A DNA stretch of 14,994 nt from the IMG/VR virus record IMGVR_UViG_2681813161_000005; one strand, written 5' to 3'. Source of the stretch: a virus. Taxonomy: Duplodnaviria > Heunggongvirae > Uroviricota > Caudoviricetes. Every line of letters begins with the position of its first letter. Position 1 is the first letter of the stretch. A program made the position numbers and the translations under genes. The notes under the pieces were generated by a model, which was not told where the DNA came from, made no database searches, and worked only from the letters and a program-made list of their open reading frames with translations. This document shows positions 8,043 through 11,118 of the stretch, in pieces.

Positions 8043-8394
8043 TTATGCGGCTGCTCCAGCTTTGTTTGCTTTAACTTCCACCGTATCAATAAGTACAGGG
8101 TAGGTTTCTGCACTACCTGTAATATCCGTAATGACAAACCTGTTGAGTCCATTAGCAGTATTGGCCCATTTCACCAGGTCAAACGCCTGTCCATCCACAC
8201 CATCAAGCACCGGAGTAACATTAATGCTGTTACTGCCCTTAAATTTAAATGCAAGCGTATGCCAGTCATGGTCGAATGCGCCAAACGTGCCAAGTTCTTT
8301 TTGTTGATTAACTGTATGATGGTATGCAACATTAATACTGGCTTTATCTGTCTGGACAAAGAAAGAACTCAGATGGCCTTCACCACCCTCACCC
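8043..8394 (-). pseudogene. nanS: C-terminal fragment (about 117 aa) of a gene interrupted by IS629 copy 3; likely the 3' end of nanS-p
   Basis: Native frame open from the IS boundary to the TAA at 8043 (..NVTPVLDGVDGQAFDLVKWANTANG..VEVKANKAGAAA). Colinear with the N-terminal nanS-p fragment at 10042..11118 on the same strand. Confidence 0.45.
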
Positions 8395-8436
8395 TGAACC
8401 GCCCCGGGTTTCCTGGAGAGTGTTTTATCTGTGAAC

Positions 8437-9327
8437 TCAGGCTGCCAGATCATCGTTTCCGATGGAAGCATAATAAGCTTTTTCTGCTTCTGCCGGAGGG
8501 ATGTGGCCCAGCCTTTCCAGCAATCGTCGATTATTATACCAGTCCACCCACGTGAGTGTGGCCAGTTCCACTTCTGCACGGTTTTTCCAGCTCTTACGGT
8601 GTATTACCTCCGCTTTGTAAAGACCATTGATGCTCTCCGCCATCGCGTTGTCATACGAGTCGCCTGTACTTCCTGTTGATGCCAGTAATCCGGCTTCCTT
8701 AAGCCGCTGTGTGTAGGCCAGCGATACATACTGAGAACCTTTATCACTGTGATGGACCGTGCCGGACGGTCGACGGGCCCATAACGCCTGCTCCAGAGCA
8801 TCCAGCACGAATGTCGTTTCCATGGACGATGAGACCCGCCACCCCACGATGTATCCGGCAAACACATCAATAATGAACGCCACATAGACGAAGCCCTGCC
8901 ATGTGCTGACGTAAGTAAAATCAGCCACCCACAGCTGGTCAGGTCGTTCTGCCACGAACTGACGGTTTACGCGGTCGCCTGCGGCAACGGCTTTCCGGCT
9001 GATGGTCGTACGGACCTTTTTACCCCGGAGAACACCGGCAAGTCCCATAACCGCCATGAGACGTGCCACAGTGCATCTGGCCACTCTGATACCTTCCCGT
9101 AACAACTGACGCCAGACTTTACGCACACCGTATACCTGATGATTCCCATCGTATACGCGCAGTATCTCTTTCTTCAGCCAGTCATCGCGCTGCGCACGGG
9201 CACTGCGTTTATCAGGATGATGTCGCTGTTGCTGACAGTGGTAATACGTTGACGGGGCAATATGTAGTTCACTGCATACCGGTCCGACCCCGTACAGCTT
9301 ACGCAGCTTATCCAGCAGTGGCATCAC
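8437..9327 (-). CDS. IS3-family transposase OrfB (DDE), 296 aa
   Basis: Protein identical to the orfB products of copies 1 and 2. Confidence 0.9.
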
Positions 9328-9649
9328 TTTTTCCAGAGGCGGTCGAACTCCGCCTTCGCAAAATAAGCGGAAGCCTGGCGAAGGATATCGTTACTGCGGC
9401 GCAGTTCACGATTTTCACGTTCCAGCTCTTTCAGACGCTGACGTTCAGCGGTGGTGAGCCCGCCATCACCGCCTCCGGTATCCCGCTCATGCTGGCGTAC
9501 CCAGACACGCAGAGTCTCCGGTATACAGCCAATCTTTGGGGCAATGGAACAAATTGCCGCCCACTGTGAGTCATATTCGCCCTGACTTTCCAGAACCATA
9601 CGAATCGCCCTCTGACGGACTTCGGGGAAAAACGAGTATTTTTAGTCAT
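9324..9649 (-). pseudogene. IS629 orfA with the same -1 homopolymer frameshift as copy 2
   Basis: G4 run at about 9623..9626 where copy 1 has G5. N-terminal translation [15 protein letters not shown].. is out of frame with the rest. Confidence 0.8.
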
Positions 9650-9703
9650 CCTGTTTACCTCTTTCTCAGGGAGTTTAGTCTCCAGGATTCCCGGGGCGGT
9701 TCA

Positions 9704-9950
9704 GTTCTTTAATCTGCTTCATGGCGGCAGCAAGTTCAGAGGCAGGAACAACCTGTTCTCCGGCGGCCACAGCAGTAAGACTTCCTTCCTGGTATTGCTT
9801 ACGCCAGAGAAATAACTGGCTGGCTGCTACACCATGTTGCCGGGCAACGAGGGAGACCGTCATCCCCGGTTCAAAGCTCTGCTGAACAATTGCGATCTTT
9901 TCCTGTGTGGTACGCCGTCTGCGTTTCTCCGGCCCTAAGACATCAATCAT
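9704..9950 (-). pseudogene. insC: IS2 insC (orfA), truncated after about 82 codons at the IS629 junction
   Basis: [83 protein letters not shown], then the frame runs into IS629 sequence. Confidence 0.85.
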
Positions 9951-10041
9951 CTGTACTCCAATGACTAGTCTAAAAACTAGTATTAAGACTATCACTTATT
10001 TAAGTGATACTGGTTGTCTGGAGATTCAGGGGGCCAGTCTA
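9704..10041 (-). mobile_element. IS2 left-end fragment (about 338 bp) truncated by IS629 copy 3
   Basis: Reverse complement of 10016..10041 is TAGACTGGCCCCCTGAATCTCCAGAC, the IS2 terminal repeat. The following ORF matches IS2 InsC. Confidence 0.85.
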
Positions 10042-11118
10042 GAAATGGCTCGCCCTGTCCTGTGACGTCCAGGTGGCTGAGCTGTCACGCCATTTCGAAC
10101 CGTAATAACCGATACCCCGAATGTCCGGGTCTTCTTCCGGTTTGTTCGTCGGCACATTCACCCCGTTCTCATCGGTCATGAACGGTACGAAATGGATATT
10201 CTTTTCCGTTTTATTTTTATAGCTGCCGTACACCGTCTGGTACGTGGATTCGTTCTTCTGCTTCCAGAAATACGTCGTGTCCCCGCATATCCAGGGAACA
10301 CCGCCAGCAGAGCCACCGACGCACTGGCCTGCCATATCCGCCAGGTCTGCACGGAATTTATCAACCAGCGCACCAAACTGTGCGGCATGATTTGCCGGCG
10401 TACCGCCAAAATCAAATTCCCCCTGCATCCACACCACGGCAAACAGCACATTTTTCGGGTTCTTCTCCAGTGCCGCTTTTGTTCGACCGATAAGGTCCTT
10501 ATACAGCGGCTTGTCCACACCCCAGCGGGTTGAATTCTCCGAGGCACCACTCGCGTCACTGTATGTGCCATCAGCTCCGGTGGTGAACGCTGAACCACCA
10601 CGACAGCACGGAACCAGCAGAATGCCCGCATTCGCCGGTATAAACGGCAGCAGTTTTTTGGCGATATGCAGCCCCTGCCCCACGGTTCCGTACTGCCCCT
10701 TTGACAGGTCCGCTTTCGGATGGTTAAGACGGCTCATGTCCTGCACATCATGCAGACAATGGTCCGCCAGAATGATGTCGTTATATTTGCATGCTGCACC
10801 GCCCGGTGTCACCGTACTGCGACGCGCCAGTTGCTTAATACGCGGGTCCGGACGGTCATATGTCCCCGGCAGCGGAAGGCCTTCACCATACGACATGCCG
10901 TTTGACTGCCCTGCCAGAACCACAACAAAGTAATACTCCGGGTCGCTGGTGGCGCTGATTACTGCACCTTCTGCTGCAATCGCCTGCATCAGAGTATAAG
11001 GGGTTATGGCCACCGGACTACCAAACGGCTGCCAGCCCTCTTTCAGTTTATGTGTCAGCTTTTCCGCAAGATCTGACGGCGACGCCGCCCTGACAACATC
11101 ATAGTGTTTAAAAGCCAT
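10042..11118 (-). pseudogene. nanS: Prophage sialate O-acetylesterase NanS-p, N-terminal 359 codons, truncated by IS2
   Basis: N-terminal region resembling the DUF1737-type start (MAFKHYDVVRAASPSDLAEKL..), then an SGNH/SASA esterase motif (LAGQSNGMSYGEG). GGGAGGA Shine-Dalgarno 4 nt upstream of the ATG. The stop is supplied by the IS2 terminal TAG. Confidence 0.7.

Follow-up and report, generated by a model that had tools for sequence, protein, structure and literature searches.

The closest described counterparts of the gene considered here are the NanS-p proteins (933Wp42 / vb_24B_21 / phi24B gp84), sialate esterases of prophages that act on 9-O-acetyl groups. In these, a DUF1737 domain comes first, a NanS-like SGNH esterase domain carrying a Ser/His pair second and a lectin-like DUF6645 domain last, the same order that can be followed across the locus described below (PMC10462455). 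The lectin-like C-terminal domain of NanS-p is thought to aid substrate binding (PMC10462455), and it adds to esterase activity according to a preprint on phi24B. For NanS, the catalytic residues are Ser19 and His301 (PMC9063846). Two kinds of IS-mediated change are also relevant. Insertions of the IS3-family element IS1203/IS629 have been described in nanS-p of Stx2a phages, giving the variant designated 'CTR3' (PMC10462455), and IS629-adjacent deletions in E. coli O157 are documented as a transposase/IEE-dependent process (Ooka 2009 and Kusumoto 2011, cited in PMC9943667).

In the current work, we examined a 14,994-nt stretch of prophage DNA, referred to as the window, in which nanS-p is present as two separated parts. 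Very probably, the window holds a dead nanS-p that was hit by IS2 and suffered an IS629-associated loss, within what is left of a non-Stx lambdoid prophage decaying in a Shigella chromosome. The relevant features, listed in the direction in which nanS-p is read and followed by the two control copies of IS629, are as follows.

11608..11857 (-): tRNA-Met(CAT)/tRNA-Arg/tRNA-Arg cluster, in the usual place upstream of nanS-p in lambdoid late regions
10042..11118 (-): 5' part of nanS-p, 359 codons, with DUF1737 and a NanS-like SGNH esterase domain
9704..10041 (-): left-end fragment of IS2, 338 of 1331 bp, with the terminal inverted repeat and the first ~82 codons of orfA/insC
8395..9703 (-): IS629 copy 3, 1309 bp; IRL (9703) adjoins IS2 and IRR (8395) adjoins the nanS-p 3' part
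8043..8394 (-): 3' part of nanS-p, 1 nt plus 116 codons plus stop, assigned by the DUF6645 profile and protein identity
7158..7903 (-): DUF1378, DUF826 and holin S genes, the normal downstream neighbours of nanS-p, assigned by synteny with annotated loci
5647..6955 (+): IS629 copy 2, a control, simple insertion with the 3-bp duplication CAT
1..1268 (-): IS629 copy 1, a control, cut by the window start, with the 3-bp duplication GTT

The position of the gene is that of a lambdoid late region, with nanS-p lying between the tRNA region and the DUF1378-DUF826-holin genes; this is the same site, after the tRNA cluster and before those three genes, that 933Wp42-type NanS-p occupies. No stx gene was found between the tRNA cluster and nanS-p in the window. 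The 15-kb prophage remnant holds IS1, IS2, IS629 and IS66-family elements, each disrupting or deleting phage genes, and IS629 reaches a density of three copies in 15 kb. Because the Q antiterminator and the early region have also been lost, in this case beside IS1, the disruption of nanS-p looks like one step in the general decay of the prophage.

The 5' part forms an ORF that, including its stop codon, spans 10039..11118 (-) and encodes a 359-aa product. The N-terminal DUF1737 domain of NanS-p (Pfam PF08410), which is capsid-binding, is present at residues 3-50 (E = 9.7e-16), and a SASA domain was also matched in the profile search. E. coli lambdoid prophages encode full-length proteins annotated as 'SASA family carbohydrate esterase / DUF6645', and the fragment shares 87-94% identity with their first ~374 residues. 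The alignment of E. coli NanS (PDB 3PT5) with intact NanS-p covers residues 72-393 of the latter, and the counterparts of NanS Ser19 and His301 in the window fragment are the nucleophile Ser72 (in GQSN) and His358 (in SHF), both of which are kept. The IS2 cut falls one residue past the catalytic His358, after residue 374 of the intact protein (residue 359 in the window), and the last ~19 residues that align to 3PT5 have been deleted; the esterase domain is therefore incomplete, and the fragment does not hold a full SGNH type II esterase domain, the Ser/His pair notwithstanding.

Beyond IS629, the initial annotation had recorded a colinear C-terminal fragment, and this fragment is indeed present as 1 nt, 116 codons and a stop codon in 8043-8394. 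Its product matches DUF6645 (E = 1e-24) over profile positions 42-116 of 119. E. coli ML35 and S. dysenteriae have an intact NanS-p of 636 aa, and the fragment agrees with residues 521-636 of that protein at 100% amino acid identity. In the intact protein, the lectin-like C-terminal domain, of the type represented by PDB 6YP6, spans residues 426-630. Of this jelly-roll region, the window contributes the last 116 residues of the protein only, and the first ~95 residues of the domain are absent together with the preceding linker. With the linker gone, as well as ~19 residues from the esterase fold and ~95 from the C-terminal domain, we infer that the esterase function has been lost and that the gene is non-functional; the retention of Ser72 and His358 in the 359-aa product counts against this dead-gene reading.

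The boundary between the 5' part and IS2 was described at the outset as an exact one, with the first 359 codons of nanS-p ending at the terminal TAG of IS2, and a base-level check on the sequence agrees. The TAG stop (10041-10039) of the 359-codon ORF coincides with the opening three bases of an IS2 terminus, TAGACTGGCCCC, so that the truncated nanS-p ORF takes its stop codon from that terminus (TAGACTGG). The same annotation had about 338 bp of IS2 remaining and about 1 kb removed, and both figures are borne out by alignment: 9704-10041 corresponds, gapless and with 4 mismatches, to positions 1-338 of the 1331-bp IS2 from E. coli CB6837, leaving 993 bp missing. The remnant is 98.8% identical over positions 1-339 to the IS2 of another contig (L001), it contains a match to Pfam HTH_Tnp_1, and its homology to IS2 ends at 9703/9704 with an ambiguity of 1 nt. 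It falls short of a full IS2, as it has neither the right end nor a second copy of the presumed 5-bp ATTTC duplication. The microhomology shared at the IS629/IS2 junction amounts to 1 nt and is uninformative.

A gut-metagenome contig (L009) carries a nanS-p::IS2 junction identical to that of the window, with 100% identity over the nanS-p 5' part and about 400 bp upstream and divergence farther upstream, and its prophage is more complete than the window's, retaining Q, RusA and an intact methylase. Because the identical junction occurs in a more complete prophage that diverges upstream, the insertion of IS2 in nanS-p is probably old.

IS629 copy 3 has the same orientation as the IS2 remnant and both nanS-p parts. 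Its two ends are intact, with the terminal TGAACCGCCCCGGG... repeats and orfA/orfB present, as in the ~1310-bp IS629, although one base is missing from the C5 run of orfA. Copy 3 differs from copy 2 by 1 nt and from copy 1 by 2 mismatches and 1 gap (99.8% identity). The absence of a target duplication around this copy, already remarked on when the sequence was first read, was confirmed directly from the flanks, which on the + strand end in ...CACCC on one side and begin with GTTCTT on the other (CCC versus GTT). In contrast to copy 3, which lacks a duplication of 3-4 bp, all four control copies have one: copy 1, a simple insertion within the IS66-family element; copy 2, which sister genomes lack, showing an empty site in its place; and, from S. 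boydii CP026867, two copies with the duplications ATTC and AAG. Since copy 3 has no target duplication, simple insertion cannot account for both of its junctions, and deletion or recombination must have produced one or both of them.

The relationship between the two nanS-p parts was resolved by alleles in which they are contiguous. An exact-sequence look-up returned an S. boydii draft contig (L015, GCA_053034545.1) that carries an uninterrupted nanS-p in the same prophage backbone. Window 10042-10906 is 99.65% identical to positions 1-865 of this contig, window 6956-8394 is 99.86% identical to positions 1303-2740, and the prophage genes downstream of nanS-p agree at 99.6-100%. In the complete S. 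boydii chromosome CP026867 (L021), nanS-p is likewise contiguous in the same prophage, and its sole interruption is an independent simple IS629 insertion that has the 4-bp duplication ATTC and lies upstream of the IS2 site, at a distance of 77 bp. Because these two alleles carry the same 5' and 3' types contiguously in the same backbone, both window fragments are, on the strength of the alignments, pieces of one nanS-p gene, as the initial annotation had proposed. Its estimate of the deleted coding sequence, about 170 codons, was too high: relative to L015, the segment lost from nanS-p is 866-1302, a stretch of exactly 437 bp that corresponds to 146 codons (289-434 in P0164, the partial L015 product), L015 beginning inside nanS-p such that codons 1-71 of the ancestor are taken from the window itself. 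The total loss is about 1.43 kb: 993 bp come from IS2 and 437 bp from nanS-p, to which the second ATTTC copy is presumably to be added.

An origin of the 5' and 3' fragments in two different prophages, joined by inter-locus recombination between IS629 copies, was considered because most of the database sequences closest to the 5' part have another C-terminal type, one that is 50-57% identical to the 3' part. NanS-p genes are mosaic, and against ML35 DNA the 5' part is ~96% identical and the 3' part 99.3-100%, which would suit such a chimera; its reciprocal junction would join the right end of IS2 to ATTTC-AGTTCATGGGC. We rejected this origin as highly improbable, given that the two S. boydii alleles show the 5' type and the 3' type contiguous in one gene of the same backbone, at 99.65-99.95% identity, and no inter-locus event is needed.

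A single ancestral nanS-p, of about 621 codons, was struck by IS2 after codon 359, and IS629 now occupies the place of 993 bp of IS2 and the 437 bp of nanS-p that followed. Three routes to this arrangement would yield an identical product, and the final sequence does not tell in which order the IS629 steps took place. The order specified in the initial annotation, with IS629 entering IS2 and an adjacent deletion following, is one of these three, and the data do not favour it.

In that route, IS2 would have inserted into nanS-p, IS629 would have inserted into IS2 at 336-338 (target AAC/GTT), and a deletion from the IRR end would then have removed the remainder of IS2 along with 437 bp of nanS-p, via intramolecular transposition or an IEE-type adjacent deletion. 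IS629-adjacent deletions are documented (PMC9943667), the identical nanS-p::IS2 junction in the more complete prophage of the gut-metagenome contig argues that IS2 came early, and the IS2-side flank GAAC/TGAACC agrees in 4 nt with the flank of copy 1, a bona fide insertion, although so short a match is weak evidence. A draft contig (L012, GCA_001184065.1) reads from nanS-p' into IS2 at 338 and on to 469 without IS629, and could be a pre-IS629 intermediate, but it is possibly an assembly artefact, being a short contig that ends in a repeat and shows 9 mismatches over its final ~55 bp. It was not accepted as proof of an intact-IS2 intermediate, as it is a 3.5-kb draft that ends inside IS2 and its mismatches are clustered. 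A further difficulty is that the nanS-p-side junction recurs in other backbones; a deletion with a random endpoint would not be expected to do so, except at a preferred transposition target. We regard this course of events as possible, if short of probable.

The recurrence of that junction counts in favour of a second route, in which IS629 would have inserted into the C-terminal domain of nanS-p (sense-strand target GGG), IS2 would have inserted independently 437 bp upstream, and a deletion from the IRL end would have removed those 437 bp of nanS-p and the distal 993 bp of IS2. The identical IS629-IRR/nanS-p junction is found with ML35-type or other downstream modules (drafts L033, L040 and L038): among the draft contigs headed by this junction, one downstream prophage type is 100% identical to ML35 and another type differs. 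Drafts beginning at the IS629/nanS-p junction are GCA_001286145.1, GCA_001286445.1 and GCA_002174725.1. In addition, two E. coli drafts (L034, GCA_049563575.1, and L035) have complete N-terminal parts and no IS2 and end 1-5 nt from the site, the former with '...GGCCGGGTG' and the latter with '...GGCCG', as expected from simple IS629 insertion with duplication of GGG. These ends could, however, mark mosaic boundaries between nanS-p paralogues; moreover, no contig shows both sides of a simple IS629 insertion, and the junction is present in 0 of 5,426 complete E. coli genomes. We regard the second route as possible, though not probable.

The finding of one IS629/nanS-p junction ahead of different downstream prophage modules is not predicted by a history confined to this locus and one lineage, and the junction may have arisen by transposition proper. 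Its recurrence could equally be read as the mark of a preferred IS629 target, which would also fit the route through IS2 if the deletion arose by intramolecular transposition. We consider it improbable that GGCC/GGG/TGAGGG in the nanS-p C-terminal domain is such a preferred target or, alternatively, that the 359-aa protein, with its DUF1737 domain and catalytic pair, keeps some activity. If the preferred-target reading were true, the site would have been used independently in several Shigella/E. coli prophage lineages, also as a target of intramolecular transposition, and the 'deletion' in the window would be a directed product of the transposase and not a random loss.

A third route would begin with IS629 inserting normally twice in direct orientation, once in IS2 and once in the nanS-p C-terminal domain; homologous recombination between the two copies would then delete the ~1.43 kb separating them along with one IS629. 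Both flanks of copy 3 are plausible as genuine insertion junctions, the recurrent IS629-IRR/nanS-p junction and the ends of the two IS2-free E. coli drafts hint at this route as much as at the second, and the lineage is dense in IS629, with nanS-p hit independently in CP026867. This route nevertheless requires three independent IS hits within 1.5 kb, and the two-IS629 intermediate was not seen; we think it unlikely.

Products predicted for the possible intermediates were sought by exact protein look-up in the collection. The 276-aa read-through product of the intact-IS2 state was absent from it, as were the 536-aa and 521-aa products of a simple IS629 insertion with a 3-bp duplication. Shorter ORFs with internal starts were set aside as candidate intermediates, as they have other causes, namely the independent IS629 in CP026867 and frameshifts.

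The arrangement itself is found in a number of public genomes. A contig of GCA_001188055.2 shares 99.99% identity with the window, and the exact 359-aa product co-occurs with IS629-fused C-terminal ORFs (136 and 142 aa) in complete chromosomes. Among contigs >1 Mb, the 359-aa product is found in three and the 136-aa ORF in at least 12, and many drafts carry them too. The source names attached to both fragment proteins are S. flexneri (including CDC 796-83) and S. boydii, with the 142-aa C-terminal fragment also found under E. coli. Junction queries against 5,426 complete E. coli genomes returned none of the three junctions; the matches of '100% coverage' in one of these searches consisted of two separate pieces joined by the tool, with no real junction. 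The junctions of the IS2 remnant, IS629 and the 437-bp deletion are specific to the carrier Shigella genomes, together with a few E. coli-labelled drafts, and could serve as a typing marker. In public annotation, the two halves are entered as a 'YjhS / DUF1737 protein' (359 aa) and a 'DUF6645 domain-containing protein' (136-142 aa). These two annotated ORFs are the halves of one nanS-p that is almost certainly dead, and annotation as a pseudogene is warranted; beyond annotation, the locus has little significance. The initial annotation suggested that loss of a mucin sialic-acid esterase could matter for growth on host glycans, and the present analysis lends this no support.

IS-driven pseudogene formation and prophage decay are typical of Shigella, and the window is the same in kind, a typical example with nothing different about it and one more case of IS-driven decay of a Shigella prophage. 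Compared to 933Wp42-type NanS-p, the gene in the window is split and lacks 146 codons, has no stx upstream, and sits in a prophage remnant without Q. The 'CTR3' variant of nanS-p involves the same IS family and the same gene, the C-terminal region included (PMC10462455), to which the window adds the IS2 remnant, the 1.43-kb loss and the absence of a target duplication. The IS629-adjacent deletions of E. coli O157 (PMC9943667) resemble the window in that IS629 is kept, the flank on one side is lost, and there is no target duplication; compared to the IEE-type deletions outlined there, homologous recombination between two IS629 copies would explain the window structure equally well. The structure is compatible with an IEE-dependent IS629 adjacent deletion without being diagnostic of one. 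Taken together, the disruption of nanS-p by insertion sequences and deletion is an event of a known kind, and one of ordinary gene decay.

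The nanS-p::IS2 junction is also present in L009, a gut-metagenome contig from Nepal (ENA ERZ4567471), where positions 10001-11151 carry the junction together with a 359-aa product identical to that of the window. The two sequences are 100% identical as far as approximately window position 11500 and diverge by approximately 3.5% beyond it, and the lambdoid prophage of L009 is far more complete: Q, RusA, and DUF968 are all present, and the methylase (330 aa) is intact.

The opposite junction, at which the IRR of IS629 copy 3 meets the 3' part of nanS-p (window 8394|8395), recurs as an exact copy at the starts of three draft contigs (L033, L040, and L038). 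Different prophage modules lie downstream of it in these contigs, two of the modules being 100% identical to the type found in E. coli ML35, and two E. coli contigs with an IS2-free N-terminal part of nanS-p (L034 and L035) end 1-5 nt from the same site. Together, these observations point to either a preferred IS629 target (GGG) or an old junction spread via prophage recombination.

The other two IS629 copies lie to the left of nanS-p.

IS629 copies 1 and 2 in the window
1-2667: IS66-family element carrying IS629 copy 1 (target duplication GTT); IS66-family transposase ORF at 1393-2667
5647-6955: IS629 copy 2 (target duplication CAT), splitting a DUF1327 gene between holin and lysozyme

Copy 2 is a recent insertion at the strain level, carried only by the window and the GCA_001188055.2 contig and absent from the sister genomes L005, L007, and L008. 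Copy 1 provides a second case of an IS within an IS in the same 15 kb. Copies 2 and 3 each measure 1309 bp, and the corresponding loci of sister genomes L005-L008 measure 1310 bp. The C5 run at approximately codon 8-9 of orfA, at 1189-1193 in copy 1, is one base short in both (window 9624-9627 in copy 3 and the equivalent position in copy 2), so that the transposase is frameshifted. Either the homopolymer was misassembled, or the loss of the C is real, inactivating, and common to the two copies.

At the other end of the window, an IS1 bridges a truncated methylase gene and the integrase region.

Features around the IS1 join
11898-12929: N6/N4 DNA methylase, truncated, two ORFs
12916-13683: IS1, complete, 768 bp, no 9-bp target duplication (flanks CAGTCGGCG versus CGCTCGACG)
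13888-14994: integrase region

Since the Q antiterminator and early genes of the S. boydii chromosome CP026867 (L021) are missing from the window at this join, an IS1-associated deletion is likely.

That same S. boydii chromosome (CP026867.1, L021 6511-7820) carries a separate, 98% identical IS629 variant that disrupts the same nanS-p allele in the same prophage. This variant lies 77 bp upstream of the IS2 site, where it duplicated 4 bp of target (ATTC) in a simple insertion. Given this independent IS629 hit and the small indels in the nanS-p of L027, nanS-p has been inactivated repeatedly in Shigella.
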